This document shows positions 32,850 to 60,753 of a DNA stretch of 64,000 nt, piece by piece. The notes below the pieces were generated by a model, which saw only the letters and a list, made by a program, of their open reading frames with translations, was not told the origin of the DNA and ran no database searches. The translations under genes and the position numbers were made by a program. The stretch covers positions 848 through 64,847 of the forward strand of contig CAZOGU010000008.1 in NCBI GenBank assembly GCA_964579625.1, read 5' to 3'. Numbering within the stretch: the stretch's first letter is position 1; each line of letters opens with the position of its first letter. This stretch comes from an uncultured Pseudobdellovibrionaceae bacterium (lineage in GTDB: Bacteria > Bdellovibrionota > Bdellovibrionia > Bdellovibrionales > JAGQZY01).

Positions 32850-32858
32850 TGTGGCTCC

Positions 32859-34174: not shown

Positions 34175-34189
34175 TTTTAGGAATGATTC

Positions 34190-35963: not shown

Positions 35964-35990
35964 ACGGAAGCAAACGCCTCCAGATGGCCT

Positions 35991-36305: not shown

Positions 36306-36406
36306 CCCCGAAGATATATTTATAATAGTAACCGAGTGTGGCGAACTGACGCAAATAAATGATCAAATGATCTCAAGATGAGACACCCCTCTCCGCAGAG
36401 GTCTTT

Positions 36407-36700: not shown

Positions 36701-36711
36701 CGTTGAGTCTC

Positions 36712-37215
36712 CTATTTTGATACATTCACTTTTTCGAAATTAGCAGGGTGAATCGCTGGGTTGGAGGGACTGACGATAAACTGAGTTTCATTTTTGCGAT
36801 CCACTGTTAACTTCTTATGTCCCATTGAGCTTCTCAAACAGTCCATGGCGTCACCATTTGCGCCACACTTCACACGTCCACTCGTTAGTTTTTCGCCAAT
36901 GCACGTTACATCTTCAAAATAAATGATGGGCCAGTATGTCCCAGGAAAACTCGAATCAATCGCCTTGATTGCGCTTTTATCAGCTCGACATTGGAGCGTA
37001 CCACTACAAATCACAGCCGCACCACCCACATTTGTTTTATTGGCGTAGACCTGATCTATTCCTGACTTGCCAACCCCGTCGACCCAATAACAAGTTGATG
37101 ATATACCCTTTAAAAAATTAATTTGTTTTTCAGCATCAGTAAGTTCAGCGGCATTTATATCCGCAAAAGTAGAAAATAAAATAAGTAGAGTTATGTGTTT
37201 TAAAGATAAATTCAT
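36712..37215 (-). CDS. secreted Cys-rich hypothetical protein
   Basis: Start set at MNLSLKHITLLILFSTF (GGGGG 9 nt upstream). Eight Cys in the mature part. Confidence 0.45.
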   Translation of the reverse strand: MNLSLKHITLLILFSTFADINAAELTDAEKQINFLKGISSTCYWVDGVGKSGIDQVYANKTNVGGAAVICSGTLQCRADKSAIKAIDSSFPGTYWPIIYFEDVTCIGEKLTSGRVKCGANGDAMDCLRSSMGHKKLTVDRKNETQFIVSPSNPAIHPANFEKVNVSK

Positions 37216-37358
37216 GGCTAGCCCCCACATCTAAAATTAGATACTTATTTTAGTGTAAATGAGATTATTTTTCTTTGCATAAAACATTCATCTATTTACT
37301 AGAAATAGACTTTTAGCGTGTACCAAACTGAGTCCATTTTTGTCTATTCCAAGCGGTC

Positions 37359-42601: not shown

Positions 42602-42602
42602 T

Positions 42603-44129: not shown

Positions 44130-44177
44130 GCACTATCCCTTGACAAATATTATGTTTCATTCTTTCCGACCGACGGA

Positions 44178-44213
44178 GCCCCATTTTCACTTCGCTCAGG
44201 ATGACGTTGGGGC
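44178..44213. repeat. GTCATCCTGAGCGAAG-type repeat (C3) inside a gcccca/tggggc hairpin, guaB-guaA intergenic
   Basis: The minus strand reads ccccaacgtcatcctgagcgaagtgaaaatgggg. Confidence 0.6.
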
Positions 44214-44216
44214 CTG

Positions 44217-45677: not shown

Positions 45678-46222
45678 ACTTTGATCTCCTTTGCTATGAT
45701 CTCACCTTGAGGATTTTTGTACCACGAGCTGTACAATTTATAATTTTCTGCAGATTGTTTTAAAAATGCGAGCTCTTTGTCGTTGAGTAAGCGAATCGCT
45801 TTTGCAGGACGACCTAAATAAAGCCAGCCTTCTTGAGTCACTGTATTTTCGGTGAGAAGAGCTCCAGCACCGATCATGGATCGCGGCGCCACCTTGCACA
45901 TGTCCATCACAATGGCACCCATGCCGATAAAACTTTCGTCACCGAGTTCGCAGCCATGAAGAATGGCCGTGTGCCCCACGGTCACGCGATCACCAACAGT
46001 GGTGCCGCATTTTTGAAATGTACCATGAATGACAGTGCCGTCTTGAATGTTTGAATCTTTGCCAATTTTGATAGGCATCACATCACCACGAAGAACCGTG
46101 TTGTACCAAATCGAACTTCCCGAACCGATCTCTACATCACCAATGAGTTGTGCTGTGCTCGCGAGAAAACTTTGTGGTGAAATTTGAAGTTTTTTGCCTT
46201 CGAGAGTGATAAGGTGTGCCAT
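45674..46222 (-). CDS. gamma-carbonic anhydrase / hexapeptide-repeat family protein (PaaY/YrdA-like)
   Basis: Left-handed beta-helix hexapeptide repeats and the His pattern VIHG..GHTAILHGC. Confidence 0.8.
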   Translation of the reverse strand: MAHLITLEGKKLQISPQSFLASTAQLIGDVEIGSGSSIWYNTVLRGDVMPIKIGKDSNIQDGTVIHGTFQKCGTTVGDRVTVGHTAILHGCELGDESFIGMGAIVMDMCKVAPRSMIGAGALLTENTVTQEGWLYLGRPAKAIRLLNDKELAFLKQSAENYKLYSSWYKNPQGEIIAKEIKV

Positions 46223-46223
46223 G

Positions 46224-46766
46224 TCACATTAAATACCTTTGACGGCCTTCTGTCCACTTCTGATTTACTAAAAAAATTTCATTATTTTGATCGGCAACCT
46301 GACATTCTTGGATGTAGCTTTTCGTCGCAAAAAAAGGCAATTCCGCCTCTAAAGAGAGGCCTAAAACCTTATCCAGCGTTTGATCAAAAAAGAGCTCACG
46401 CCCTTCTTTTTTGTAATAGAGCTTTACGTGATGCTTTCCCAATGAATGTTTAATAAATACGCACCGTTGCAATTGAATGTCCCACTGTTTAAAGAACTCC
46501 TGATTGACGGTGGTCAAAGATTTTTTCCACAGCGATTTAAGATTGGGCACCCCTAAGAGGTCCGCACTTTGAATGGGAAATCGAAGTGGTAAAAAAAACT
46601 TTTCGCTATCGTCCTCGAGGATAAAAACAAAGTGGTCGCCCTCAAAAACAATCCCTTTGGGCGAAAGCTCAAGCCACTCAAAATCACAATAACCCATATC
46701 TGTTTGTTCGCTCGGAAGAGCTGTCGTTTTGTTTTTGATCTTACGTTGTCGAGTGATTTTAGCCAT
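46224..46766 (-). CDS. hypothetical protein, possibly bifunctional-nuclease (BFN/DUF151)-like
   Basis: Weak collinearity with BFN domains (FVFILEDDSEKFFLPLRFPIQSADLL ... VFIKHSLGKHHVKLYY ... LGLSLEAELPFFA). Sits immediately downstream of miaB. Confidence 0.35.
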   Translation of the reverse strand: MAKITRQRKIKNKTTALPSEQTDMGYCDFEWLELSPKGIVFEGDHFVFILEDDSEKFFLPLRFPIQSADLLGVPNLKSLWKKSLTTVNQEFFKQWDIQLQRCVFIKHSLGKHHVKLYYKKEGRELFFDQTLDKVLGLSLEAELPFFATKSYIQECQVADQNNEIFLVNQKWTEGRQRYLM

Positions 46767-48075
46767 GAACGCGCTCCCCTTCGAGCATCGAGGGCCGTGC
46801 CTTTGTCACTTTTAAAAAGCCCAGCTCTCCCACTTTCAGATCGGGAGCTAAAAACTTGGCCGGGCGATTGTTGGAAGTGCGACCAAAGACGATCCCATCT
46901 TTGGTTTCTTCGACAAGCACTTCGTAGGTTTTTCCCAAGCTCTCCTGCGCAAGCTCTGCGGAGATCGGTCTTTGCAGAGCAAACAACCGCTCGAGGCGCT
47001 CGGATTTTTCTTCTTCAGAAAGTTGCTCTTCCCAGCGCGCCGCTTTTGTAAACGGACGCGGGCTGTATTTAAAAGCGTAAATATTATCGTAGCGAACATC
47101 TTTTATCAGCGACAATGTCTCCTGAAATTGCTCTTCGGTTTCACCTGGGAATCCCACAATGATGTCTGTAGAGAGTGTGACATCGGGAATGGCTTTTCGA
47201 ATCATTTCGACTTTTTGTAAATAATCTTCGCGCGTGTAGCCGCGATTCATTCGCTGGAGAACTTGCGAGTTTCCGGACTGCACGGGAAGATGAATGTAAT
47301 CACAAATCTTTTGACGATAGGCCTGGCTTAAATCGACGAGCTCTTGATTAAAATCTTTTGGGTGTGAGGTTGTGTAGCGAATGCGCAAAACATCTGTTTC
47401 TTGCGCGATGGTTTTCATCAATTCACCAAAGTGGGCTCCGCACTCGGACTTGTAGGAGTTGACGTTTTGCCCAAGCAAAGTGACCTCGCGAACCCCTCGC
47501 AGAGTGAGAGCTTGAATGTCTTTAATCAACTCTTTCATCGGACGACTGCGCTCGCGGCCGCGCGTGTACGGCACCACACAGAAGGTGCAAAAATTATCGC
47601 AACCTTTGGTGATGTTCACAAAGGTGGATATTCCTGGATTGCGAATCAGAGTTTCGATTTGATAAGGTTTGGTGTATTCGAAGCGGGCATTGACCAATTT
47701 TTCTTTGGTTCCGCGAGCTTTTTCGGCAAGCTCTGGAAGCTGGTCGATGTTGTCTGTTCCAAAAACAAAATCAATCAGAGGATTGTCATCAATCAGATTT
47801 TTCTTTTCCTGCTGGGCCACACAACCGCCCACTCCAATGCGTAAGAAAGGGTTGTCCTTTTTAAGCTGACGGTAGCGTCCCACTTCGGAGGAAACTTTAT
47901 GAACTGGCTTTTCGCGCACACTGCATGAGTTGATTAAAATCAAATCCGCCATTTCGGGCGAACTCACCGGCGTGTAGTTAGACATTTCTAACAAAGAGTA
48001 CATGCGCTCACTGTCGTTGACGTTCATCTGACAGCCGTAGGTCGAAATATAAACGCCCTTGTTATTCTCGCTCAT
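46759..48075 (-). CDS. miaB: tRNA-2-methylthio-N6-dimethylallyladenosine synthase
   Basis: N-terminal YGCQMN cluster, radical-SAM CDNFCTFCVVP, C-terminal TRAM domain. Confidence 0.95.
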   Translation of the reverse strand: MSENNKGVYISTYGCQMNVNDSERMYSLLEMSNYTPVSSPEMADLILINSCSVREKPVHKVSSEVGRYRQLKKDNPFLRIGVGGCVAQQEKKNLIDDNPLIDFVFGTDNIDQLPELAEKARGTKEKLVNARFEYTKPYQIETLIRNPGISTFVNITKGCDNFCTFCVVPYTRGRERSRPMKELIKDIQALTLRGVREVTLLGQNVNSYKSECGAHFGELMKTIAQETDVLRIRYTTSHPKDFNQELVDLSQAYRQKICDYIHLPVQSGNSQVLQRMNRGYTREDYLQKVEMIRKAIPDVTLSTDIIVGFPGETEEQFQETLSLIKDVRYDNIYAFKYSPRPFTKAARWEEQLSEEEKSERLERLFALQRPISAELAQESLGKTYEVLVEETKDGIVFGRTSNNRPAKFLAPDLKVGELGFLKVTKARPSMLEGERVHG

Positions 48076-48228
48076 AAACTCGCTTTCAATAGCTTAATCT
48101 GTTAAAAATTCAGCACCTTACGAAACATAATTAATGCGTGACAAAATGTGCCAAATAATTTATCAGTTATAGCAATTCGAAAATCGAAGTCAATCTGCTC
48201 TGTAAGGAGCCCTCTGATTTGGAGATTT

Positions 48229-48747
48229 ATGGAGCCCCGCTTAAAAACCTCGACGCAATGGACCTCTTTTCCCGAAGAACTCATCCAACAGATCATCGAA
48301 GCCGCCGAAGACCACTTTTCGGACTACGAAAAAGGCGATCGCTCGTTTATTGCCGAAGGCCGCATTTACCCTAGTGAAATCGTTTTAAGAATGGGCCTTA
48401 CTGCCCCTAAAGGCCAACTCCGTCAGGATAACTTTGAAGCCTCCATGGAATACGACGTATTAAAGGTGAAAGCCTTGGACGAAATTCACTTTTTGGTCGA
48501 TTTTTTAGCAGAAACTTGGGCCACCTTTTTTGAGGATGCCCCCGAGGATCAAGATCTCTCCCGCCTTTGGCTTGAACATACGTTTGAAAAGAAACCTATT
48601 TATCTTAGATACAATACAGAGAACACCGACCTTGAAAAGTTAGCCAATGAGCTCTTAAAAACAGATGAGAAGCAATTGGTCTACGGAGAGCCTTCCTACG
48701 AAGCAGAAACAACGGCCCCTGAGGCAAAAATGGACGACCTCCACTAG
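48229..48747 (+). CDS. hypothetical acidic protein
   Basis: Start set at the ATG preceded by GGAGA (listed ORF starts at 48148). The stop codon TAG lies inside the left arm of the 48744-48910 palindrome. Confidence 0.45.
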   Translation: MEPRLKTSTQWTSFPEELIQQIIEAAEDHFSDYEKGDRSFIAEGRIYPSEIVLRMGLTAPKGQLRQDNFEASMEYDVLKVKALDEIHFLVDFLAETWATFFEDAPEDQDLSRLWLEHTFEKKPIYLRYNTENTDLEKLANELLKTDEKQLVYGEPSYEAETTAPEAKMDDLH

Positions 48748-48910
48748 AGCCCATCTCATAAATAGTCGCGATTTAAAGCAAAGCCTTTTTTGATAACTCT
48801 TTGTCGTTCGTCGTCTCGTTAGCGCCTCTGGCTAGCGCTTCCTCCTCACTTCGCGATTTATCAAAAAAATCATTGCTTTAAATCGCGACTATTTATGAGA
48901 TGGGCTCTAG
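48744..48910. repeat. 167-bp palindromic element E1 (38-bp perfect arms, extended imperfectly)
   Basis: 48744-48781 is the exact reverse complement of 48873-48910. The inner extension pairs ttttttgataa (48786-48796) with its complement (48857-48867). The core is GC-richer. Confidence 0.9.
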
Positions 48911-48997
48911 CTATAACCCGCAGGTTTTTACTGAATTGACGCTTCCTTACCGCAAACAGACTCGCCTCCTCCCTCTGTCTACGGTATCCTTCTCTTT

Positions 48998-49510
48998 ATG
49001 CGAATTCTCTTTTTGAATCTGTTTTTTGTGTCTTTGTCTCTTTTTGCCTGGGAGCGTCCGATGAAACCAAAACCCTCTCGCGAAGAACTTAAAAAAATTC
49101 TCACACCGATCCAGTTTGACGTCACTCAAAACGAAGGCACCGAACGAGCCTTTAAAAACGAATATTGGGACAATAAACAAGACGGAATTTATGTCGATAT
49201 CGTTACTGGAGAACCTCTTTTTAGTTCCTTGGACAAATTTGATTCGGGAACTGGGTGGCCCAGTTTTACAAAACCACTGGTCAAAGAAAACATTGTGACC
49301 AAGGAAGACCGCAGTCTTTTTTCCACTCGGACTGAGGTTCGCAGCAAATTTGCCGACTCACATCTTGGACATGTTTTTGACGACGGCCCTAAACCAACGG
49401 GCCTGCGCTACTGTATGAACTCCGCCGCGATGAAGTTCATTCCCAAAGAAAAAATGAAGGAATTGGGCTATGAAGAGTTTATAAAAATCTTTGAGACTCA
49501 AAAGAAGTGA
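48998..49510 (+). CDS. msrB: peptide-methionine (R)-S-oxide reductase, exported
   Basis: SelR domain GTGWPSF, RYCMNS catalytic Cys, preceded by a signal peptide [17 protein letters not shown]. Confidence 0.9.
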
Positions 49511-50103
49511 TCCAAGGAAATATCATGCGACTCTTATTCTTTGTCTTTTTATTTTTAAGTGGATTCTCGGTTCAAGCTCAATCTACAAAAACGGTTGTGC
49601 TTGCTGGGGGTTGTTTTTGGTGTATGCAACCTCCTTATGATAAATTGAAATCACAAGGAGTCGTTTCGACACGAGTTGGATATTCTGGTGGCTTAAAAGC
49701 CAATCCTACCTACGAAGAAGTCTCTTCGGGCACCTCTGGACATATTGAAGCCATTGAGGTGGCTTATGATCCGGCGAAAATCACTTTGGCTCAGCTGCTT
49801 GAAGTCTTTTGGAAAAATATTGACCCGCTTGATAGCAAAGGACAATTTTGTGACAAGGGAGAGCAGTACCTGAGCGCTTTCTTTTATCAGAACGACGACG
49901 AAAAAATAGCTTTTGAAAAGAGCCGTACTGAGATTCAAAAGAAATTAAAAAAAGATGTGGTTACAAAATTATTAGCCTTTAAGAATTTTTACCCAGCTGA
50001 AGACTATCATCAGTCTTATTATACAAAAAATCCTGTACGCTATAAGTTTTACCGCTACAACTGCAGAAGAGACAAACGACTCAATGAGATTTGGAAACCA
50101 TAG
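49507..50103 (+). CDS. msrA: peptide-methionine (S)-S-oxide reductase, exported
   Basis: GGCFWC active site preceded by a signal peptide (..FLSGFSVQA). YHQSYY motif. Overlaps the msrB stop by 4 nt. Confidence 0.9.
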
Positions 50104-50133
50104 ATCCTTCCTCCTGACCGAAGGGAAGGATCT
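50102..50133. terminator. perfect 10-bp hairpin between convergent msrA and VWA genes, member of the repeat family (C4)
   Basis: agatccttcc (50102-50111) / ggaaggatct (50124-50133). 50112-50135 is identical to the reverse complement of 23881-23904. Confidence 0.65.
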
Positions 50134-50139
50134 TGGCGG

Positions 50140-51165
50140 CTACTTGACTTTCTTAGGTGTTTCTACTGGGGCGACTTCGAAATCCACTTGCGGGAATGTA
50201 TTCGGTGGATAGAGATCCCATTCGATATTTGGCCCGAAGACAATGGCAATTTTTTCGGGATGATACGCCCAACCCTTCAATTTGTCTTGCGGCAATTCCA
50301 CGCCATCCATAGTGACTTTGATGGTTTTGGGAACAGGCTTTTTGCTGAGATACATAATTTGAGATTTCGCGGCAATGCTTTCTCCGGCCTCAGCGAGATT
50401 TTCACCAAAATCATCGCAGAGGGAAAATGTTTTTGCATTTGTCAGTTTAAAAAAATCATTTAAACCATCATAATCTTCAAGCTCCGAAGTTTCACCTGAG
50501 CAAACTCCAATCTCACTTTCAGGAATATGAGCGGCCGCAACATAAATCTTTTCGGCGCTCCCTTTGATCGTGAGCAAAAAGTCGTACAAGCTTTGTGCAT
50601 CTTGCTGGATAGATTGATCTTCCGTGTCCGTGATAAAAATCAGCGCTAAATTTGCCTCGGGCCGATAAAAACCAGCGTTGTGACCTGTGAGTAAAGGATC
50701 ACTGAGTGCTAAATAGATAGGATCGAAAAATTTTTCGGTGTAGTCGCCGCTCGTGCCAACCAACATATTCCTGGCTAGCGCATTGATCCCATTGGGTGTA
50801 TTTCGATCTACATAAAGTGGTGCTCCTACAAGTTTGCCACAGCATTTTGGAGTGGGATAGTAACCTCCGGTAGTACTCGTGACGACGCCCACATGATAGT
50901 CGAGATACGTCGTTCGAACAATGGCATCAGCAAATTTAGAAATATTGTTTGCCAAGTTTTGTTGATGTTCACTCATACTGCCAGAATCATCAATCACAAA
51001 CAAAATATCTAGCTTCGGCTGAAAAGTGTCCTTACCGACTGGCGCCACCTCGGTTTTTGAATCTGTCTCAAGCTCTACTTTGGGAATGAGCTTGGGATTC
51101 TTTTCGGTGCAACTTGCAAAGAAACAAAATCCACTGAGAAAAATAATTTTAAAAATTGTATTCAT
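50140..51165 (-). CDS. VWA-domain (MIDAS) lipoprotein, CglB-like adhesin candidate, cluster 2
   Basis: Lipobox FASC, DILFVIDDSGSM (DxSxS), LIFITDTED strand. Paralog of 12033..13463. Confidence 0.7.
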   Translation of the reverse strand: MNTIFKIIFLSGFCFFASCTEKNPKLIPKVELETDSKTEVAPVGKDTFQPKLDILFVIDDSGSMSEHQQNLANNISKFADAIVRTTYLDYHVGVVTSTTGGYYPTPKCCGKLVGAPLYVDRNTPNGINALARNMLVGTSGDYTEKFFDPIYLALSDPLLTGHNAGFYRPEANLALIFITDTEDQSIQQDAQSLYDFLLTIKGSAEKIYVAAAHIPESEIGVCSGETSELEDYDGLNDFFKLTNAKTFSLCDDFGENLAEAGESIAAKSQIMYLSKKPVPKTIKVTMDGVELPQDKLKGWAYHPEKIAIVFGPNIEWDLYPPNTFPQVDFEVAPVETPKKVK

Positions 51166-51187
51166 TGGGACCCCTTTAAAAGGCTCA

Positions 51188-52798
51188 TTATTTCTGAATC
51201 GCCTGACAACCTTTAACTACATCCACTTTGTACTTGCCAATTTCATCAAACCAAACTTGACCGTCTTCTACTGGAAAAGAAATTTGATCTTTGGCTGTTG
51301 CCACAGTGGTGCCCTTTTTTTCGAGAACCTGACTGTCTTTTGTTGCCTTGGCAATTTTTTGAGCTGACAACGCCTGCTGCATGACTTCGGCTTCAACAAT
51401 GTGCATTTTTTGAAGCAGTCGATGGATATCAGCGACTTCCTCTGTGGCCAGCGCTTTCATTCGCGCGAGAGAGGCATTGCGGGCCTCGTTCACCTGAGCA
51501 TCAATCGATTTTTTAAAAATATCCAAATCACCCTGCAATCCAACTTTTGATGTGGAATTTGCCAAACTGCGCCCGTAGATACCCATCGCGATGTCGGCTT
51601 CTTTTTCTAACTCGCGCTCAAGCACGATGTGATTGTATAAGGCTTCGTCGCGCGTGACCAAGCGAGGAAGTCGCGCCGCCATGGCACCTAGCTCTGTCGT
51701 CTTAAGACGTTGCTTCTTCATCTTTGCAATAAATTCTTTTGCCACAGGAGTCGCCGGATTTTGTGACAAGGCTAACATCTCTGCTGTTTTGGGCTTAAAA
51801 CGCTCGCGAAAGGTCGATAGCGTTTTTAAAACTCCAGGATAATCACAAACTTTAAGCTGTCCCAAAGATCGTAAAAAAACTGTTTCTGCACCAACAATAT
51901 CACGCAATTCCGGGATCAGAAGGCTCTGAGTTGCAGCCATAGTGTTTTGTGGCTCACCTTTACGCAAGTAAGACCAACCCATCTCCTCTTGCGCCTCCAA
52001 CCAAAACTCGGACTTGGTTGGAATTTTTTTGTAGTACTTCACAGCGGCGTCCATATAGCCATTTTCGAAAAGCATTCGCGCGGCTGTCATGTTCATTAGA
52101 TCCATTCCAACGGGGTTGGATGGTGTCGACATTAAACTGTTTAAAAGTTTTGCCGCTGTGGTGGAATCGCCACTTAAAGCCATTGCGATCACGAGTTGCC
52201 ACTGAATCGCGGCACGATCGGTTGTTCCAGGTGCAGAAATTTTAATTATGTTTTTTAACTCTTCGATGTCTTTTGCCGTAAAAACTTTTTTAGACTTCAC
52301 TTGTACTTCGACTGACGGGCTAAAGACTTTCGTCCATTCTGGCTTCCACGAAATTCGTGCGATTTTCCAGACCGGGTGATTGTCGGCAAGCATTTCACGC
52401 AGAGGCTGCATTAAAACAGGAGATAGTTTCGCCGGATTGACCTGGGCAAAAAGTGTTTCCACTCCGTAGACAGTCATATTATTTTTTAGAAACAAATACA
52501 CCAAAAGACCTTGCCCATTGGCTGTCTTTGCCGTTTCACTTTTTCCAAACGCCTCAAAGTATTGCAAAAGTGCTTTTTCAAACTCACCACTTTGCATCAG
52601 TGCAAATAGAATATTTTGTTCCGCTGTCGTTCTCGGAAAAAGAGCCTTAAAGGGAGATGTCTCCTCGCCGCTGTCTTGCTTTTTTTGTTTTTCCGTTTTG
52701 GTTTGATCCGAAGCTCCACCTAAAATAGAGAGGACGTCATCTTCTGCAAAAGCAATGTCGGAAAAAATGAAAACACTTAAAAAAATCAATTTCTTCAT
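51188..52798 (-). CDS. secreted TPR/helical protein (GltC/GltE-like), cluster 2
   Basis: Signal peptide. The C-terminal half is collinear with 11206..12033 (LGQLKVCDYPGVLKTL, VWFDEIGKY..C). Carries an extra ~260-aa N-terminal region. Confidence 0.6.
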   Translation of the reverse strand: MKKLIFLSVFIFSDIAFAEDDVLSILGGASDQTKTEKQKKQDSGEETSPFKALFPRTTAEQNILFALMQSGEFEKALLQYFEAFGKSETAKTANGQGLLVYLFLKNNMTVYGVETLFAQVNPAKLSPVLMQPLREMLADNHPVWKIARISWKPEWTKVFSPSVEVQVKSKKVFTAKDIEELKNIIKISAPGTTDRAAIQWQLVIAMALSGDSTTAAKLLNSLMSTPSNPVGMDLMNMTAARMLFENGYMDAAVKYYKKIPTKSEFWLEAQEEMGWSYLRKGEPQNTMAATQSLLIPELRDIVGAETVFLRSLGQLKVCDYPGVLKTLSTFRERFKPKTAEMLALSQNPATPVAKEFIAKMKKQRLKTTELGAMAARLPRLVTRDEALYNHIVLERELEKEADIAMGIYGRSLANSTSKVGLQGDLDIFKKSIDAQVNEARNASLARMKALATEEVADIHRLLQKMHIVEAEVMQQALSAQKIAKATKDSQVLEKKGTTVATAKDQISFPVEDGQVWFDEIGKYKVDVVKGCQAIQK

Positions 52799-53481
52799 AG
52801 AATGTATCCTATTTGAAGACTCGCCACTGTATTATCGAGATCGACAGTTTCATCGTAGCGTTTGGCTTCGTAAGTTTGGTAACGGACCTCGAAACGAGTT
52901 GAAAAATGCTGACTCCACCACAGACCCACACCGCCACCTGCTGACCAGGTTGGTACTCCGCCGCTGCGTAAATTCATCGTGCCATACCCACCTGATAAAT
53001 AAAGATCAAAATGAGTGATCCCCATGTTGAGCGTGTTCATTTTTCCGTAAATGGGATAAATGTTGATGAATCCCATCGAAGAATTACGAGGGTAATCAAT
53101 GTCTGGAATGATCCCCTGATTGTTGGCGTCGTAATCATTGATAAGATACTCCCCTTCTTTATTGAGAGAATTGGAATACTTGCTGTATCGACCGCCAATG
53201 CTAATCCAAGGAACGATATGATAATTGAGGGTTAAACCGTACGAAGACGTATCGATGTAAGCATCCCCACCGGTCACCATGGCGAATTCCGGCGCAATCT
53301 CAAGACGATTTCTTCTTTTTACAATTCGATCTTGAACGACAGAGACATTGAGATCTGGATGAAGTGCTTTTGCTGTATCAAAAAGATCTTTATTTTCTCC
53401 AAGACCATCAAAGTCTTTTAAAACGTCAGCTCCAGCGAGATTTGTTAACAGCAATAGAGAAATCAATATTGTTTTTTTCAT
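52795..53481 (-). CDS. small outer-membrane beta-barrel protein (GltA/GltB/GltH-like), cluster 2
   Basis: Start trimmed to MKKTILISLLLLTNLAGA. IYPIYGK and RFEVRYQTY motifs are shared with 10448..11209. Confidence 0.7.
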   Translation of the reverse strand: MKKTILISLLLLTNLAGADVLKDFDGLGENKDLFDTAKALHPDLNVSVVQDRIVKRRNRLEIAPEFAMVTGGDAYIDTSSYGLTLNYHIVPWISIGGRYSKYSNSLNKEGEYLINDYDANNQGIIPDIDYPRNSSMGFINIYPIYGKMNTLNMGITHFDLYLSGGYGTMNLRSGGVPTWSAGGGVGLWWSQHFSTRFEVRYQTYEAKRYDETVDLDNTVASLQIGYIL

Positions 53482-53488
53482 AAAAACC

Positions 53489-54706
53489 TCACTGTACCAA
53501 GTTAATTGTTTTAGTAAACGATGCTGGTTTTGTTTCCGAATCCACCGGCGACTTGTTTGTGGATTCGACAGAGAACCTCTCTGCGCGTGGAAGTTCGCCA
53601 GCAGGTACATTCCAAACGATTGTACACAAAGAGGACGTTGCTGATTTACCAGAGGTCCCTGCGATACTTTGACAAGAGCACTGTGGCGCTCCAACTAAAG
53701 ATGCACACGGAGTGGTAAAATCACTCTTTACAATTCCTTCGCCCTTGGGATCGAGAACGGTAAAACTAAAACGATTTTCGAGACCAATTTTAAATTCGAT
53801 GGTTTCTGACCACGATGTCACAGGTGCAGAGACTGATGTTCTCACTGCGAGCTGTTGTCCTTTTGGATTCGATTCTATCCCGTTTGCAGAAATGGCATAA
53901 ATGTCAAAATAGCCAGTTGTTTGATCCGCAGTGAGTTCGAGTCCGTTTAAGTTGATTTCGACGCGAAAGTCCCACAACCCCTGGCTCTCATCCTTAAGGG
54001 TTGGTTTTTGTGCCTTCACAAATGGAGCCAAATTTAAGTTCCCCATATTTTTAGACAAAAACTGCAAAGTGGGACGAAGCCCATCGGCGTCTTTGGCATC
54101 GATGTCTTTCACGCGTACATCAAAAAAACTGGACACATCTTTTTCTTTAATCCATGCCGGAACTTTTGAAACCGAAACGATTTCTGGAATAGAAAACTTT
54201 TCGTTATAAATGTGCAAAGGGATGCTTTTTGTATAAACGTACTTCTCTGTGTTGTTTGTTGTGTACACTTCGATATCGAGCGGATAAACCATCTTATCTT
54301 GGATGACAAAACCCACTGGCGGAGTCCATTTAAATTTGAGGGTCGCCACTTGTTGACTCTTTGTATCCCCAGACACATTTGTAACAACAGCATCTTTAAA
54401 ATCACCGACGTTAGCGATCGCGATTTCGTAAGTGGACTCTTCCTCTAAGAAGTTTCGCGAGCTGATTGTAATTTCCTGCTCCACACCCTCGCGAAATGCA
54501 TAAAAATCCGAGCTATCGATGGTTAAAACATCTTGCCCCAGTGGCTTGGGTTTTTGGGGTTGAGGTTTTTTGGGTGATTCACCTTTTTTAACAGCATCGG
54601 ATTGGTCTGCCAACGGATCATCTTTTCCAAAAGGATTGGAATTACAACCATTGACCATCGCAATCACTGCGAAAAGAATTAAATATTTAGAAACACCTTG
54701 AATCAT
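53489..54706 (-). CDS. lipoprotein with two Ig-like segments (GltK-like position), cluster 2
   Basis: Lipobox VNGC. LKFKWTPPVGF and CTIVWNVPAGE repeat the F/V-W-x-P motif seen once in 9615..10451. Confidence 0.55.
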   Translation of the reverse strand: MIQGVSKYLILFAVIAMVNGCNSNPFGKDDPLADQSDAVKKGESPKKPQPQKPKPLGQDVLTIDSSDFYAFREGVEQEITISSRNFLEEESTYEIAIANVGDFKDAVVTNVSGDTKSQQVATLKFKWTPPVGFVIQDKMVYPLDIEVYTTNNTEKYVYTKSIPLHIYNEKFSIPEIVSVSKVPAWIKEKDVSSFFDVRVKDIDAKDADGLRPTLQFLSKNMGNLNLAPFVKAQKPTLKDESQGLWDFRVEINLNGLELTADQTTGYFDIYAISANGIESNPKGQQLAVRTSVSAPVTSWSETIEFKIGLENRFSFTVLDPKGEGIVKSDFTTPCASLVGAPQCSCQSIAGTSGKSATSSLCTIVWNVPAGELPRAERFSVESTNKSPVDSETKPASFTKTINLVQ

Positions 54707-54707
54707 T

Positions 54708-55823
54708 TTAGACTCCTGTTCGTTTAAATGAGAACGGATACGATACCTTCACTTCCACTCCACCATCTGGGAGAGGAAACTTCCAACTGCGTAAACGTAA
54801 TAAAATACAATCTTCGATTTGTTTGGAATTGAGTGTGGTGTTTTCCACATCGGCGATTTTCACTTGGCCGTTGGCTCCAATCACAAACTTCACACCCACT
54901 CGCCCGGCCAAGGCGGGATCCATCTGTAAACCTTGCTCGTAACAAAAACGAATTTGTCCCATGTTTCGGCGAATCACTTCGGACACCATATCCAAATCCA
55001 AACCGCCATCAATGAGCGCTTCTTTCCCAAGAGGAATCGGCATATTTCCGGCCGAACCGATCATGCTCAGCTTACCGTAACCCGCTTGGCCGCCGCCTTT
55101 GCCTTTGGTTCCGTAACCACCGCCACCGGCCATGTTTGCGCCAGCTCCGAGAGGCGCTGCCACAAGCCCTTTGCCGTAGATCGATGTTTGAACTCCACCG
55201 CTTCCAGCCGTGCCACCCAAACCAGGTCCAGCAGTTGTGTTCACCGCATTGAGATTTAAGCCGCCTTTTTGTGGACTTTTATTCAAGCTTCCAAGAACCG
55301 CGAGCGCCCCAAGCCTTTTTATTCCATTAAATTTTTTGGGTGTATCGGCCTTAACTGTGGCTTGATCTTTTTTAACCACCTGCTGTTTGTTCATTTCTTT
55401 GGGCGGAATTCTTTTTACAATCTGCACGACCTGCTGCTTGAGCTCTGCCTTTAAATCATCCGATGGCGGAGAGAGTTTTAATACAGCTAAAAATCCTCCG
55501 TTTAAAAGAAATACGACGAGTGCAATAAGATAAATCAGACGTTGATTGTCTTTTTCGACAAGTGGAGTTTGTACCACCTGTTCCACATGATCAACCAGCG
55601 ATATCACATTGCCATTATCGAGTTGCAGAGGCTTTGATTGCACAGTCGCAGGGTCGACCACCGCCAACTTACGGTAGTGAATTTTATGATGATCGAGTAA
55701 TTTGAGATCGGAATGAAGCTCCACGCGGCGATTGTCTTCGCGACAAATCACATGAGCTAATTGGCCATCCCAATGAAAAACTCTGGACACTTTGTCGTGA
55801 TTTTTAAGAACGAGTTTTTTCAC
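54708..55823 (-). CDS. bitopic Gly-rich protein with AgmX/PglI (TonB-C-like) C-terminal domain (GltG-like), cluster 2
   Basis: N-domain collinear with 8328..9605, one TM, G-rich linker. C-terminal VSEVIRRNMGQIRFCYE..GQV..CILLRLRSWKFPLPDGGVEVKVSYPFSF. Confidence 0.8.
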   Translation of the reverse strand: MKKLVLKNHDKVSRVFHWDGQLAHVICREDNRRVELHSDLKLLDHHKIHYRKLAVVDPATVQSKPLQLDNGNVISLVDHVEQVVQTPLVEKDNQRLIYLIALVVFLLNGGFLAVLKLSPPSDDLKAELKQQVVQIVKRIPPKEMNKQQVVKKDQATVKADTPKKFNGIKRLGALAVLGSLNKSPQKGGLNLNAVNTTAGPGLGGTAGSGGVQTSIYGKGLVAAPLGAGANMAGGGGYGTKGKGGGQAGYGKLSMIGSAGNMPIPLGKEALIDGGLDLDMVSEVIRRNMGQIRFCYEQGLQMDPALAGRVGVKFVIGANGQVKIADVENTTLNSKQIEDCILLRLRSWKFPLPDGGVEVKVSYPFSFKRTGV

Positions 55824-55841
55824 AATATCTCCCCTTATGCC

Positions 55842-56129
55842 TTAGTAGCGTGCCGCCGATTGCTGAATTCGATCTTTAAAATCTTTACGAACCTGTAATA
55901 AACCATCGAGGACTTTATCTTGTTCGACGGTTGTGACAGCCTCGTCTGTAAAATGATATTTTCCTTGGACCAGAAGTTCGTCAAAACTCATGTCTGTAGA
56001 TTTTCTGTCGTCCGATTTTTTTGCATCTGAATTTTTTGTAGCAGCCGCTTCATTCTTTTTTTGAGACGTGTCTGAAGACGCGTCTGGCGCCGAAAATCCC
56101 ATAAAACTCAACAATAACATCCACATCAT
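55842..56129 (-). CDS. small secreted protein (GltF-like position), cluster 2
   Basis: QGKYHFTDEAVTTVEQDKVLDGLLQVRKDFKDR parallels RGKYQTAGQGIAMVEDEKVLDDLLGLRRSFKDR in 7996..8301. Confidence 0.6.
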   Translation of the reverse strand: MMWMLLLSFMGFSAPDASSDTSQKKNEAAATKNSDAKKSDDRKSTDMSFDELLVQGKYHFTDEAVTTVEQDKVLDGLLQVRKDFKDRIQQSAARY

Positions 56130-56139
56130 ACTGTTCCCC

Positions 56140-59091
56140 TTATTTTAGAGCTTTTTCTGCCTTCATATTTTCGAGACGACCTTGTAAATAAGCCACCATC
56201 GAACTGCGTCCCAGTTGTTTTTCGTAAGCCAATAATTGTTCCAGTCGTGTTTTATCAAATGGTGATTCGCGCACCGACTGTCTCAATTTTTCAACATCGG
56301 CAATGGCTGGCGTCTTATTGTCCGTTGCCGCAACACTTCTGACTGTGAGCAGACCCTGAAGATCCGCAGGAATCGATGCCTTTACAACATCCATCTCTTT
56401 TGCAAATACCGTGCGCATCGGCTCAACTTGTGCTTGAACTCCTTCACTGAACTTACTGAAGGCTTCTTTGTTTTTATAAATTTCTGAAAGTTTTGCTTGA
56501 ATGTCGTTGGCTTTGGTTTGATGTGGAGCTGCTTGCTCCGACAAAAGTCCAAGATACTGTTGCTCTTCCTCTGCACTTAAACCTTGTGGCACAGGAAGAG
56601 AGAGAACTTCATTATAAAAACGTTGATGTTCCTGAGCGAGAAGATTCAATAACACAATTTGCGCCGCCCACTCTTGTTGATCCACAGCACGGGCTGCGAG
56701 CTTTTCGGTTTCTTCGATCAAGGCCACACGACTTTTTAAACTTTGAGCTAATTTTTTCTGTTGGCTTGAATCAATCGTGGATTGAGAAAATTTTTGCTTT
56801 TGCACCAACGCTTTTGCAATCAGCTCAGCTCGCACAGCGGCTTTGCCATAAGGCGTGACCACAAACTGAGTCGATGTTGTGATCGGCGTGAGAAGCTGTG
56901 TTTTTCCAGTTTTAGCATAAATTTCGTAAAGCACTTCGGTATAGAACTCAGGCTTTTTAATGAGAACGGTCTTAAAGGTTTCGAAATCTTTCTCTGGAGT
57001 CTTCGATGTTTTCACAATCTGAGCCACCACGGCTGTGGATTTTTCTGCATCTTTCGATTCTTTGACGAACTGTCGATAGTACGGCGACGAATCTTTTTGT
57101 GCCAAATCTGCAAGCAGGGCCATCTTTAAGTAACGTGTCGAGGGATCTGCCTCTTTAGTGGTGATTTTTTCGGTGGTGGCAAGTGCGCTCGCGAAGTCAA
57201 ATTGCAGTTCTGCAAGCCATGCTTTGCGGGAGAGCGCAAATTGCACATCGTCCTGACTAAGCCCGGGTTGACGCAACAACTGATCAGCGGCATCTCGGGC
57301 CGCAGATAGTTTTTGGAGCTTTTCGGCCAGGATCAGTTTGTTTTTAAGGAACGTATTTTTTTCTTCTTGCGAAGCGCCGGTCATATCAAATCGGTTGAGC
57401 GTCACCCAAGCCTTTTCCGAATCACCCGCTGACGCCAACTGTGAAGACTGCGTGAGAACAGACTTTCTCGCGACTCCTAAATATGATGCGGCCTGAGTTG
57501 GATGGGCGGCAGATAATTCTTTGGACCACGTTTCTAGACGTACATCATCTTTCATAAGAACAAGAGAATCCAAAGCTAAATCTGCGGCTTTGGCGCGAAT
57601 GTCCATCGGTGCGGATTTTTCGAGAGCCAGCGCTTTCATTTGTTCCGCCGATGTTTTGTAATCTCCCGCTTCATAGACAATATGGGCACGTTGATAGCGA
57701 ACATCCATCTCTTTTTTGCGCTCAACACTTAAATCGAGATAGGCTTGAGTGGTTTGGTTGATCAAACCAGGATTTTTTAAAAGTTCGGCGTTTTCGATCG
57801 CTGCTAGCAGTGAAGTTTCTAGCCATCCTTTTCGTGCGGCATCTATCTTAGAATCTTTTTTAATCTCCAAAGAAAGGGCTTGAGCCACGGTCAAATGTTC
57901 TTTGACCGCTAGCTCATGATCTTTCAATTGTGAAGCCACTTGCGCTTGCCATAAGCGCATATCGACTTCACCTGGAAAGACAGCAAGATATCTTTGATAG
58001 GACTCGAGTAATTCTGGGGACGGGCTTTTTTTCTCGAGTTGATTCCAATCTAGGACAAACTGTTTTAAGCGAGTTTTGAGCTGCTTGCAGGTGTCATCGA
58101 CACAGCTGCCAAGACTGCTCCATAGCGCAAGAGCTGTTTCGTAATCCTTAACAGCTTCTGTGCGGTTTTTGTGTTGCGACTGAAGCTGCGCCAAATGAAC
58201 ATGGCCTTCCATACGTGCTTTGGGTTCTTTTTGTCTTTGGATCGAATATCTCCACGCTGCGATGGCCGGTGCCACCTGCCCGAGGCGTTCGTATTCGGAG
58301 GCCAGGTAAGAGAGGTGTGCGAGTTTTGCGTTATCAGGACTCAGTTCATAAAGTTCATCGAGTTCTGAAGAATTAAAAGCTCGACGAGCCATAAAAGTTG
58401 CAAGATCGCGCGAGACTTCTTCTTGAAATTGTTTATCCACAGAAACAATTCCAGATTGGCTGCGCGACAAGAGTTCTGGTGATTTTAAAACTTTTTTGAG
58501 CTCGCTAATTCCTTGCTCAATATTTCCTTGGTTAAAATAGCACCACCCGGCGCGATAGCTGGCGAGACCTTTTTGCGAAGGATGAGAGGACATGACTTTT
58601 GTGTAATATTGCAAGGCGAGTCGGTAATCTCGTTTTTTAAAATAAATTTCGGCCAAAGAGAGCTCGGCTTCTGAAGAAATTTTTTCGTTTTTCTCTTTAA
58701 TAAGCTCCTGGTACATCGCAATAGCTTTCGCTTCGTTGCCAAGAAGTTCGTGCAAGTGCCCGACTTGAGTATTTACGCGGGCTTTTTGATCATGATCTAA
58801 AGTAGGTAGGACATCGTTATAGATTCGAATGGCTTTTTCGCGATCCTTATTCCCAGCTTTGCAAACAGTGCAGCCCTCATTCAGTTCCTTCATGGAAAGA
58901 CGACGACCACGCTCGGCATGAAGATCGGCCAAACGAAGGAGAATCGACTGGCGTGAGGAATCGTTGGGTGCAAGATTGAGGCTCACTTGTGTGAGCTTTT
59001 CGATCAGCTTCTCTTGAGCCGCTTGATCTATATCTTGAGCGATTCCACCAACAGCTAACAACGAAATAAGAATAAAAACAATTTTACGCAT
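56140..59091 (-). CDS. large secreted TPR scaffold protein (GltD/AgmU-like), cluster 2
   Basis: 983 aa with a signal peptide. Collinear with 5024..7999 (LRLADL.AER.R, GCTVCKAGNKDREKA, YRAGWCYFN, VSRDLATFMAR). Confidence 0.7.
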   Translation of the reverse strand: MRKIVFILISLLAVGGIAQDIDQAAQEKLIEKLTQVSLNLAPNDSSRQSILLRLADLHAERGRRLSMKELNEGCTVCKAGNKDREKAIRIYNDVLPTLDHDQKARVNTQVGHLHELLGNEAKAIAMYQELIKEKNEKISSEAELSLAEIYFKKRDYRLALQYYTKVMSSHPSQKGLASYRAGWCYFNQGNIEQGISELKKVLKSPELLSRSQSGIVSVDKQFQEEVSRDLATFMARRAFNSSELDELYELSPDNAKLAHLSYLASEYERLGQVAPAIAAWRYSIQRQKEPKARMEGHVHLAQLQSQHKNRTEAVKDYETALALWSSLGSCVDDTCKQLKTRLKQFVLDWNQLEKKSPSPELLESYQRYLAVFPGEVDMRLWQAQVASQLKDHELAVKEHLTVAQALSLEIKKDSKIDAARKGWLETSLLAAIENAELLKNPGLINQTTQAYLDLSVERKKEMDVRYQRAHIVYEAGDYKTSAEQMKALALEKSAPMDIRAKAADLALDSLVLMKDDVRLETWSKELSAAHPTQAASYLGVARKSVLTQSSQLASAGDSEKAWVTLNRFDMTGASQEEKNTFLKNKLILAEKLQKLSAARDAADQLLRQPGLSQDDVQFALSRKAWLAELQFDFASALATTEKITTKEADPSTRYLKMALLADLAQKDSSPYYRQFVKESKDAEKSTAVVAQIVKTSKTPEKDFETFKTVLIKKPEFYTEVLYEIYAKTGKTQLLTPITTSTQFVVTPYGKAAVRAELIAKALVQKQKFSQSTIDSSQQKKLAQSLKSRVALIEETEKLAARAVDQQEWAAQIVLLNLLAQEHQRFYNEVLSLPVPQGLSAEEEQQYLGLLSEQAAPHQTKANDIQAKLSEIYKNKEAFSKFSEGVQAQVEPMRTVFAKEMDVVKASIPADLQGLLTVRSVAATDNKTPAIADVEKLRQSVRESPFDKTRLEQLLAYEKQLGRSSMVAYLQGRLENMKAEKALK

Positions 59092-59098
59092 AAACCCC

Positions 59099-59593
59099 TT
59101 ACTTCATCAAAATCGCAAATTTAATATCACTAAAACCCGCATTCCCCGTCGCAAGAATAATTGAGTTCATCTGGGCAAACTGCACGCGACGATCCGCCTG
59201 CAAAGTGACGATGCCTGGAAACTCTTCGTTGGGATGAGTTTCTTTGTATTGAGCGCGAAGCTCGAGAAGAGCCGCAACGAGATCTGTTTCCTTGATTTCT
59301 TTGTCTTCCAAAAAGAGTTTTTCCCCGTCAATTTTTATAACCGGGTTTCTCTCGATGACATCACCCAATGCCGCTTTTGGAAGCTCCATATCTTTTCCAA
59401 GAGTCAGAAGCTCACCGGTGGATGAAAAGCTCATCAATAAAAAAATGACGAGAATCGAAAATGCATCAATCAAGGCCGTCAAGAGAAGATCCGAAAAGAT
59501 ATTTCTTTTTTGTCGAGCGTGTTTTGGATTGAGGATCGAAACCGCTGAGAGTGTATGAAAAACAGAAGCTTTGACCGTCGATGTTGTCATCAT
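59099..59593 (-). CDS. ExbD/TolR-family protein, cluster 2 copy b
   Basis: LLLTALIDAFSILVIFLLM has the TM Asp. VTLQADRRVQFAQMNSII is an ExbD-type C-terminus. Ortholog-like to 4535..5020. Confidence 0.85.
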   Translation of the reverse strand: MMTTSTVKASVFHTLSAVSILNPKHARQKRNIFSDLLLTALIDAFSILVIFLLMSFSSTGELLTLGKDMELPKAALGDVIERNPVIKIDGEKLFLEDKEIKETDLVAALLELRAQYKETHPNEEFPGIVTLQADRRVQFAQMNSIILATGNAGFSDIKFAILMK

Positions 59594-60045
59594 AGTGGTG
59601 AAACTCCTAGGTCAATAAGACCCTGTTTTTTAAATTGATCCATCAGTGCTATCATTTCTTCGTAAACAGATTGCGCCTGAGGTTGAATCAAAGCTGTGCG
59701 CAATTCGGGCTCGAAGGTTTTTAATTCGTTCACAGCCCCTTCGAGATTTTGCAGATTGGCTTTTCCATCCACTCCCTTTACGACAAATTTACGAAGTTTT
59801 ACTGGAACCTTTTCGGTATCTTGAATATGCAGAGACAACTCTCCAGCCGCTCCCATATTGACCCAGAGCGTGGGCTTTTTAGGAGTTTCGCTGGCTGGCT
59901 GTCCGCCAACGGCTTGTTTAACATCCAATGTTCCAACCTGAACCCACACTGCCGTCAAAAGAAGAAAGCAAATGCAGGCCGATAGCAAATCAATAAATGG
60001 AATCAAATTGATTTCAAAATCCAAATGTTTTTTTCCGTGCTTCAT
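59590..60045 (-). CDS. ExbD/TolR-family protein, cluster 2 copy a
   Basis: DFEINLIPFIDLLSACICFLLLTAVW is nearly identical to the TM segment of 4076..4522. Confidence 0.85.
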   Translation of the reverse strand: MKHGKKHLDFEINLIPFIDLLSACICFLLLTAVWVQVGTLDVKQAVGGQPASETPKKPTLWVNMGAAGELSLHIQDTEKVPVKLRKFVVKGVDGKANLQNLEGAVNELKTFEPELRTALIQPQAQSVYEEMIALMDQFKKQGLIDLGVSPL

Positions 60046-60069
60046 CGAAGCTCCCCCCTAAAAAAGAAC

Positions 60070-60753
60070 TTATTCTGCGGCAGGATTATTTTTGTAGCGC
60101 AATCCTTTAACGGTCATAGGATCATAAGAGAAACTCAAAAGATTAAACGCTTTTAGCGCGCCTTGTGTGAGCTCTTCCATCAACGTGTTTGTGCGATTGA
60201 CTAAAACCGCATAAGCCACAAGTGCCGGGATCGCTGTGATCAGTCCGTAGGCCGTTGCATTCATCGCTTCAGAAATACCGGCAGAAAGTAGCGCCGCTTT
60301 TTCAGAAGGATTGGCGTAAGAAACCGCTGCGAATGATTTAATCATCCCAGTGATGGTTCCAAGGAGACCTGTTAAAGTTGCCACGTTACCAAGCATTGAT
60401 AAAAAGGACGTGCGCTTATCAAGAGCCGCATTTTCTGCGATCAAAACTTCGTCCATGCGACCTTGAATTTCTTCTTTGCCACCTAAATTTTTAGCAGCCG
60501 TCGCCCCAGCATAAATAGCCGTCGCCAGCGTGCTTTCCTTCATCCCTTGCGTTTTAGCAATCACCACATCAAGATCCCCACGACGAATCGTGTCTTCCAT
60601 TTGGGCAACAAATTCGACGTTGTTGGTTTTACGTGTCATAAATAAAAAATAAACTCTTTCGATGATAATCGCGATCGAGATCAATTGAATGATCATAATC
60701 GGATACATAAAGAATCCACCCTGTTCAAAGGCCATTGCAATTTTCGCTAACAT
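60070..60753 (-). CDS. MotA/TolQ/ExbB-family proton channel (AglR-like), cluster 2
   Basis: Start trimmed to MLAKIAMAFEQGGFFMYPI, preceded by GAGGGGGA. SMLGNVATLTGLLGTITGMIKSF and ISEAMNATAYGLITAIPALVAY. Confidence 0.9.
   Translation of the reverse strand: MLAKIAMAFEQGGFFMYPIMIIQLISIAIIIERVYFLFMTRKTNNVEFVAQMEDTIRRGDLDVVIAKTQGMKESTLATAIYAGATAAKNLGGKEEIQGRMDEVLIAENAALDKRTSFLSMLGNVATLTGLLGTITGMIKSFAAVSYANPSEKAALLSAGISEAMNATAYGLITAIPALVAYAVLVNRTNTLMEELTQGALKAFNLLSFSYDPMTVKGLRYKNNPAAE

Follow-up and report, generated by a model that had tools for sequence, protein, structure and literature searches.

We analyzed a stretch of 64,000 nucleotides (nt; hereafter the window) from an uncultured Pseudobdellovibrionaceae bacterium (GCA_964579625.1, contig CAZOGU010000008.1, positions 848 to 64,847 of the forward strand), focusing on a ten-gene cluster, here named cluster 2. 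An earlier note on this DNA had described it as a second, inverted copy of another ten-gene cluster in the window (cluster 1), and had read both as complete machines. The results showed that the region 50140-60822 carries, on the minus strand, ten consecutive open reading frames (ORFs) of 227 (250), 151, 164, 983, 95, 371, 405, 228 (299), 536 and 341 amino acids (aa), where the lengths in brackets belong to upstream alternative starts. The intergenic gaps range from -4 to 24 nt, and cluster 2 therefore reads as one operon. Consensus scans of its interior found promoter-like and terminator-like sites no more commonly than in shuffled sequence. Gene 1 most likely starts at the ATG at 60753, and its open frame extends back to a GTG at 60822. 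The most likely start of gene 8 is at 53481 (MKKTILISLLLL..., MKKTIL, 228 aa) rather than at the TTG at 53694, which would overlap gene 7. The features of the window are listed in Table 1.

Table 1. Coordinates of the cluster 2 genes and of other features of the window, with the BLASTP match of each cluster 2 protein to its cluster 1 partner
Gene	Feature	Position	Strand	Evidence	Identity to cluster 1 partner
1	AglR-like TolQ/ExbB/MotA-family proton channel, 227 aa	60070..60753	-	Pfam PF01618 E 2e-25	44%, E 7e-64
2	First TolR/ExbD-like stator subunit (AglQ position), 151 aa	59590..60045	-	Pfam PF02472 E 3e-16	33%, E 1e-31
3	Second TolR/ExbD-like stator subunit (AglS position), 164 aa	59099..59593	-	Pfam PF02472 E 1e-11	30%, E 1e-21
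4	GltD-position large secreted TPR protein, 983 aa	56140..59091	-	TPR Pfam matches and signal peptide	28% over 993 columns (full length), E 6e-123
5	GltF-like small secreted protein, 95 aa	55842..56129	-	NCBIfam gliding_CglF E 2.4e-5, under curated cut-off	34%, E 4e-15
6	GltG-like TonB-type protein, AgmX/PglI C-terminal domain, 371 aa	54708..55823	-	NF033768, NF033760	29%, E 9e-41
7	Lipoprotein with three tandem Ig-like domains, 405 aa	53489..54706	-	Lipobox VNGC; AlphaFold2 (AF2) model	
8	GltA/GltB-type outer-membrane beta-barrel, 228 aa	52795..53481	-	TIGR04565 OMP_myx_plus	34%, E 4e-43
9	GltC-like secreted TPR protein, long form, 536 aa	51188..52798	-	NF033756 GltC E 1.6e-20, residues 233-532	25%, E 4e-29; cluster 1 residues 27-268 vs cluster 2 residues 237-532
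10	VWA/MIDAS outer-membrane lipoprotein, candidate substratum adhesin (CglB/Bd1483-like), 341 aa	50140..51165	-	Lipobox FASC	27%, E 2e-20
	Cluster 1, ten-gene paralogous partner	3370..13463	+	Same ten positions, same order	
	CheX and CheY-like genes, after cluster 1 only	13519..14485	+	Pfam CheX E 8e-18, Response_reg E 2e-28	
	Intervening 36.7-kb block: dnaE, guaA, guaB, MiaB/RimO-like radical-SAM enzyme, DEAD-box helicase, msrB/msrA	13464..50139			

Family assignment of the two clusters

Both clusters were assigned to families with Pfam and NCBIfam profiles. Each encodes a TolQ-like channel, two TolR-like subunits, a TPR protein of ~985 aa, a GltF-like protein, GltG, an Ig-like lipoprotein, a barrel, GltC and a VWA/MIDAS lipoprotein, and each retains the Asp residues of the stator, the signal peptides and the lipoboxes. 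In cluster 2, gene 1 supplies the TolQ/ExbB/MotA-family channel expected of AglR; it is 89-93% identical to its orthologs in four of the loci that we fetched for comparison (L001-L004) and 64% identical to that in L005, from strain AZI86, which is labelled Bdellovibrio bacteriovorus. Both TolR/ExbD-like subunits retain the transmembrane Asp, the first within the segment NLIPFIDLLSAC (IPFIDLL) and the second in LIDAF. As the earlier note had remarked, the first ExbD transmembrane segment is almost identical between the two copies. Its Asp is conserved.

The accessory proteins gave matches of differing strength. GltG carries the AgmX/PglI C-terminal domain (NF033768, 104 bits vs a cut-off of 40) and matched the GltG model NF033760 at E 1e-41, under the equivalog cut-off; it also gave a weaker secondary match to the GltJ model through their common C-terminal tail, and a weak TonB_C match. 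The barrel passed the cut-off of OMP_myx_plus (83 bits vs 60). The large TPR protein is homologous to Bd0417 of B. bacteriovorus HD100 (E 5e-103), which Luciano et al. list as a homolog of MXAN_4870/GltD (PMC3169522), and its closest relatives come from four metagenome-assembled genomes (MAGs) labelled Bdellovibrionales (74-76% identity). The VWA lipoprotein has DDSGS (DxSxS) at residue 59. The homologs of these genes in a B. bacteriovorus-labelled strain carry the NCBI annotation of gliding motility proteins. By these profile matches, both clusters are predicted Agl-Glt-type envelope motors, that is, the gliding cluster of Bdellovibrio-like predators. A Tol-Pal or TonB identity was rejected, since the TolQ and ExbB equivalog scores fell far short of the cut-off (77 vs 221 bits for TolQ), TolR reached 31 vs 127 bits, and the neighbouring genes are of Glt type.

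Homology, descent and divergence of the two clusters

We compared each cluster 1 protein with all cluster 2 proteins by BLASTP. The cluster 1 ORFs measure, in order, 221, 148, 161, 991, 101, 425, 278, 253, 275 and 477 aa. At nine positions each protein gave a single significant match, always its positional partner, at 25-44% identity (Table 1); at position 9 the 275-aa cluster 1 GltC aligned with the C-terminal half of the 536-aa cluster 2 protein. With pair 7 linked at the profile level (see below), the ten collinear partners on opposite strands that the earlier note had claimed were all recovered, and the protein sizes that it quoted were all correct. At the DNA level, the longest word common to both clusters is 13 nt and blastn gave a single real match, 236 nt of aglR at 67%, which rules out both a recent duplication and gene conversion. 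The duplication is thus old, as had been proposed, and the split has not been homogenised by gene conversion. These comparisons support the view that clusters 1 and 2 are true paralogs.

The Ig-like lipoproteins at position 7 gave no significant BLASTP match to each other (E 0.65), and we compared them as profiles built from two small families of 7 and 21 members. The hhalign probability was 83% over 71 columns, and rose to 95.4% (E 1.9e-8, 75 columns) when position-7 proteins of more distant clusters were added. Each family hidden Markov model (HMM) scored the position-7 proteins of the other family above all other ORFs of the tested loci, and both matched the position-7 protein of the HD100 cluster Bd0411-0421 (6.5e-9 and 5.7e-12), indicating that the latter is an intermediate linking the two families. 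The AlphaFold model of the 278-aa cluster 1 lipoprotein contains one Ig-like sandwich (predicted local distance difference test score, pLDDT, 61 overall and ~80 in the folded part), and the AF2 model of the 405-aa cluster 2 lipoprotein contains three tandem Ig-like beta-sandwiches (pLDDT 84.5). Foldseek searches with these models returned generic Ig and cadherin arrays only. On this evidence, the position 7 partners are homologous, through the first Ig-like domain only. No internal repeat was seen when the 405-aa protein was compared with itself. The W-x-P segment that the earlier note had seen twice corresponds to domains 1 and 3 of three. In L006, the closest cluster 1 relative (56-68% identity), GltG is followed by the barrel without an Ig-like lipoprotein gene (L006:5597-7687), indicating that some lineages either do without this component or encode it at another site.

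The larger proteins of copy 2 had been taken as lineage-specific expansions, and this claim did not survive the comparison. The same sizes recur in L005 (236/151/165/994/86/377/384/241/531/345 aa) and in the published lengths of HD100 Bd2369-2377 (531 for GltC, then 235/376/996/175/151/244 aa; Luciano et al. Table S3, PMC3169522), a pattern that is unique to Bd2369-2377 among the HD100 clusters. The cluster 2 protein sizes are therefore a conserved signature of the paralog type and are not specific to this genome. The long form of GltC is kept in L002-L005, L009 and L011, and the short form is limited to the cluster 1 lineage (275 aa in the window, 276 aa in L007). Other GltC lengths are 355 aa (Bd0413), 510 aa (L009), 531-579 aa (cluster 2 type) and 713 aa (Bd1474), and the equivalog model of GltC in NCBIfam, which derives from the Myxococcus protein, spans 622 positions. 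The more economical reading of these lengths, we infer, is that the cluster 1 lineage lost the N-terminal part of GltC, the short form looking derived. For the VWA lipoprotein, the length difference of 136 aa between the copies had been ascribed to a missing Pro-rich linker; the linker accounts for ~40-60 aa of it, and the remainder, ~90 residues, consists of insertions within the VWA region.

The earlier note had proposed gene-by-gene phylogeny as a way to separate a block duplication from a piecemeal origin. We built maximum-likelihood trees, read as unrooted, for the nine alignable positions with all fetched loci, both with and without the HD100 Bd0411 cluster (L012). All nine trees separated cluster 1, L006 and L007 on one side from cluster 2, L001-L005 and L011 on the other, and placed HD100 Bd0411-0421 and L009, a third type, between these two groups. 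Bootstrap support was 96-100 on the cluster 2 side and 92-100 on the cluster 1 side, except in the barrel tree, where L007 joined at 57-71 only. A larger tree of the TPR protein, with 205 tips, put the copies of the window on opposite sides of its midpoint root, and cluster 2 lay within a 115-tip clade holding B. bacteriovorus and Bdellovibrio sp. proteins. Pairwise identities pointed the same way: for each cluster 2 protein, L005 (35-64%) is a closer match than the cluster 1 partner, each cluster 1 protein is closer to L006 (44-68%) than to its cluster 2 partner, and the cluster 1 proteins present in L007 are closer to L007 (37-54%) than to their cluster 2 partners, except for a truncated VWA fragment. 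The congruence of the trees across all genes argues for whole-cluster duplication and block inheritance and against piecemeal assembly. It fits a history in which whole clusters would have been duplicated as blocks before the radiation of the sampled Bdellovibrio-like lineages, each type then being inherited as a unit.

Relatives of cluster 1 among the loci found were L006 and L007 only. A metagenome scan with the cluster 1 TPR protein found nothing, and the same scan repeated with an alignment found one locus, of the cluster 2 type. In L007 (GCA_044229295.1, L007:9014-17908), a cluster 1-like Glt set with a 276-aa GltC is preceded by a gene for a LysR-type regulator and lacks stator genes; this set may borrow a stator encoded elsewhere. 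In a protein-collection search, two cluster 1 queries (TPR 5024-7999, lipoprotein 9615-10451) returned no 100% self-match, and both cluster 2 queries had one. The missing self-matches probably reflect a difference in gene calling or indexing and have no biological meaning.

Evolutionary rates were estimated against L003. Synonymous divergence (dS) was saturated even against the nearest relatives, and we compared the proportions of nonsynonymous (pN) and synonymous (pS) differences instead. The ten cluster 2 genes gave pN of 0.05-0.36 and pS of 0.64-0.86, the latter being saturated. Cluster 2 has no frameshifts and no internal stops, and all frames of both copies are intact, which rules out the decay of one copy; with whole frames, a stator for each cluster and pN far below pS in cluster 2, the earlier description of two intact machines was borne out.

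The fastest-evolving parts of cluster 2 are its two surface lipoproteins, at positions 7 and 10, position 7 being the faster. The Ig-like lipoprotein is 45-49% identical to its orthologs (adjoining genes, 74-93%), and its Bdellovibrio counterpart is detectable by HMM alone (E 1e-36). The VWA lipoprotein is 56-62% identical to its orthologs. In L002-L004 the terminal VWA/MIDAS gene is tandemly duplicated (L002:17900-20071, L003:17946-20148, L004:17920-20103); these copies, too, show 56-62% identity to the single window gene, and by the tree the duplication postdates the split from the window lineage. In the window, msrA sits where the second VWA copy lies in L002-L004. Compared with the motor core, the Ig-like lipoprotein and the MIDAS adhesin thus evolve at several times the rate, and relatives differ in how many of their domains or genes they carry, which makes both lipoproteins natural candidates for the difference from engine to engine.

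Genomic context and regulation

The 36.7-kb housekeeping block that the earlier note had placed between the clusters was confirmed, and includes guaA and guaB in addition to dnaE. The same note had also treated the clusters as inverted arms around this block. This could not be upheld as a potential for recombination: the longest identity between the arms is 13 nt, and in three related MAGs (L002-L004) both flanks of cluster 2, including ~4 kb of the inner block, are syntenic, with no inversion breakpoint at cluster 2. An inversion substrate was therefore ruled out, and since there is no usable DNA identity between the arms, the inverted geometry carries no mechanistic meaning. The GC content of cluster 2 is like that of its surroundings.

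The signals around the two clusters differ, as had been claimed. A sigma54-type -24/-12 element with correct spacing, TGGTCC-N5-TTGC, lies at window 3313-3327 (TGGTCCCGGCCTTGC), ~45 nt upstream of the cluster 1 start codon, and the nearest sigma54 look-alike upstream of cluster 2 is GG-N11-GC. A CheX and CheY-like pair was found after cluster 1 only; the HD100 cluster Bd0411-0421 is not followed by such a pair either.

Two further features lie close to cluster 2. At window 61001-61160, between cluster 2 and a Lys/Ala/Pro-rich gene (61166-61882), a GC-rich core is enclosed by a long inverted repeat that is perfect and rich in AT. An msrB-msrA pair lies downstream of cluster 2 (window 48998-50103); L001 and L002 have a complete pair on the upstream side (L002:6939-7978), and L002-L004 also have msrB downstream. 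Apart from this minor, local shuffling of msrB-msrA, the site is syntenic.

Interpretation and comparison with known systems

Taken together, the gene content, family matches and trees make it highly probable that cluster 2 is one Agl-Glt-type surface-machine operon, driven by the proton-motive force (PMF), of a Bdellovibrionales predator, an ancient paralog of cluster 1, and of the type represented by HD100 Bd2368-2377. By sequence comparison, cluster 1 appears nearest to the Bd0411-0421 type. By homology to the Myxococcus and Bdellovibrio systems, the TolQ-like channel and the two TolR-like subunits would turn proton flow into movement in the inner membrane. GltG, the GltD- and GltC-position TPR proteins and the GltF-like protein would pass the force across the periplasm, where it would be taken up by an outer-membrane platform made of the single GltA/B-type barrel and the three-Ig-domain lipoprotein. 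This platform would display the VWA/MIDAS lipoprotein as an adhesin to the substratum.

Several observations weigh against this interpretation. The GltC match (E 1.6e-20) reached 73 bits vs an equivalog cut-off of 450, and the CglF/GltF match (E 2.4e-5) reached 24 bits vs a cut-off of 90, so that these two cluster 2 proteins are best described as putative homologs and not equivalogs. The VWA lipoprotein gave weak scores, below the cut-offs, with the VWA, CglD and Bdellovibrio MIDAS-adhesin models, and a search of the PDB found no sequence relative of it. The large TPR protein did not match the curated NCBIfam GltD model even at E 10, no cluster gene was best matched by the models of GltE, GltH, GltI, GltJ or GltK, and each cluster has one GltA/B-type barrel rather than two. 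Among public sequencing runs queried with the TPR gene (56140-59091), none was found to hold it. The proposed orthology to Bd2368-2377 draws on matching lengths and on a divergent B. bacteriovorus-labelled strain, not on HD100 sequences, and the flanks of L005 do not match HD100. (A tie between L005 and HD100 through a flanking pyruvate phosphate dikinase gene was rejected, as the HD100 gene is Bd1150, which adjoins no listed cluster.) In unrooted trees, an ancient whole-cluster transfer between Bdellovibrionota lineages would look like an ancestral duplication, and the two cannot be told apart. Finally, a 2026 review on HD100 notes that some gliding operons could encode transporters and not motors (PMC13689555).

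The last point bears on a different reading, in which the PMF would power cluster 2 as a Tol/TonB-like conveyor with some other role in the envelope, for instance the transport of a surface polymer or protein or a part in prey entry or exit, in the manner of Agl-Nfs. We regard this as unlikely. The core complex does occur in non-gliders, and Myxococcus paralogs cannot substitute for motility (PMC3169522); Lambert et al. (2010) likewise allowed that the tonB-like/agl operons possibly differ in function (PMC2797640), and the absence of GltE, H, I, J and K from cluster 2 would suit such a role. However, two additions that Luciano et al. tied to motility (PMC3169522), the GltF-like protein and the GltA/B-type barrel, are present in cluster 2, which also has an adhesin-like MIDAS lipoprotein, and the similar HD100 cluster shows increased protein levels at prey exit, for which gliding is known to be used (PMC12546842).

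The relation between the two clusters also admits other explanations. That they are redundant back-ups, with no specialisation, would be compatible with their same ten positions, same predicted topology and intact frames, but we consider it very improbable: identity is 25-44%, both types are kept separately across deep lineages, the clusters differ in upstream signals and appended regulators and most of all in their surface modules, and the HD100 clusters are expressed at different stages (PMC12546842, PMC2797640). A recent horizontal gain of one copy, or a recent inverted duplication within the genome that left a pair able to invert the 36.7-kb block, could account for the inverted orientation around housekeeping genes. 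Such an origin is hardly credible given the 13-nt longest common DNA word, the GC content like that of the surroundings, the synteny of cluster 2 and both its flanks in three related MAGs, and cluster 2 orthologs that reach Bdellovibrio.

For two anciently separated Agl-Glt-type operons, the most likely arrangement, judged from the sequences, is that the copies serve different stages or surfaces and are regulated differently. The life-cycle-stage specialisation suggested in the earlier note is the same as that proposed in the literature for the four complete HD100 clusters (PMC2797640, PMC12546842, PMC13689555). Since 2010-2011, B. bacteriovorus has been known to carry four homologous agl/glt operons under different regulation (PMC2797640, PMC3169522), and this gene-family expansion was thus already on record for the model species, which the earlier note did not recognise. 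The 2011 study of Luciano et al. described four expanded core complexes in Bdellovibrio, as well as multiple duplications and a lack of GltH, I, J and K (PMC3169522). In a 2025 proteome, the Bd0411-0421 proteins peak early in the bdelloplast and the Bd2368-2377 proteins are upregulated at exit (PMC12546842), and a 2026 review put forward the hypothesis that each engine serves a different stage (PMC13689555).

Specificity probably comes from the surface parts that evolve fast, namely the Ig-like lipoprotein and the MIDAS adhesin. A bolder proposal, which we put forward as possible but rather doubtful, is that each engine combines a conserved motor core with a fast-diversifying, cluster-private surface cassette that tunes it to a surface, the Ig-like lipoprotein being an unstudied component specific to Bdellovibrionales. 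Such a cassette may comprise the Ig-like lipoprotein, with one to three domains and absent from L006, and the MIDAS adhesin, tandemly duplicated in the nearest cluster 2 relatives. If this is true, the cassette and not the motor would match the engine to the prey outer membrane, the bdelloplast interior, the exit pore or an abiotic substratum. A MIDAS lipoprotein of this sort, Bd1483, has been deleted in HD100, with prey invasion unaffected; going by its locus number, Bd1483 closes the operon listed by Lambert et al. as Bd1473-1483 (PMC2797640). These findings would extend the multi-engine gliding repertoire, characterised so far in B. bacteriovorus only, to an uncultured Bdellovibrionales lineage, and suggest that the separation of at least two engine types predates the divergence of these lineages and that the types were inherited as whole blocks. 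They leave the current understanding of the gliding system unchanged: cluster 2 is an ordinary feature of the group, and the modest lead that it offers is the pair of Ig-like lipoprotein and MIDAS adhesin.

Among known systems, Tol-Pal and TonB-ExbBD are alike to cluster 2 in the stator, which belongs to the same TolQ/ExbB and TolR/ExbD superfamily, and in the weak TonB_C match of GltG, but cluster 2 lacks genes for TolA, TolB, Pal or a TonB-dependent receptor. The Agl-Glt system of Myxococcus xanthus (AglRQS, GltA-K, CglB) is closer. It shares with cluster 2 the TolQ/TolR-type motor, GltG with the AgmX/PglI tail and the GltA/B-type barrel, and cluster 2 has putative counterparts of its GltC and GltF and a candidate VWA-type outer-membrane lipoprotein adhesin. 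The differences are that cluster 2 is a single operon with a single barrel and without GltE, H, I, J and K, that its GltG is half as long and without the FHA domain that Table S3 reports in GltG homologs of myxobacteria (PMC3169522), that it has an extra Ig-like lipoprotein, and that its Glt equivalog matches lie far below the cut-offs. The M. xanthus Agl-Nfs spore-coat transport system is reported to pair a paralogous Glt-like set and the same kind of motor with a non-motility task (PMC3858216); cluster 2 differs in having no sporulation context.

The nearest counterparts are found in B. bacteriovorus itself. In HD100, GltE has been found in Bd0828-0838 only (Luciano et al. Table S3, PMC3169522). 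The HD100 cluster Bd0411-0421 has the same ten positions and is nearer to cluster 1 than to cluster 2 (TPR protein 33% vs 26%, GltG 224 vs 153 bits), but it falls outside both clades, has a GltC of 355 aa and lacks CheX/CheY. The Bd2368-2377 type differs from cluster 2 in its flanking genes and shows only 35-64% identity to it in the Bdellovibrio representative L005. L005, which is not HD100, has protein sizes of this pattern and groups with cluster 2 in all nine trees, and HD100 Bd2368-2377 itself has ten genes in the same order as cluster 2, a terminal gene annotated as adhesion-related, and closely similar lengths for GltC (531 aa vs 536 aa in cluster 2), the barrel (235 vs 228), GltG (376 vs 371), the TPR protein (996 vs 983) and ExbD (151 in both).

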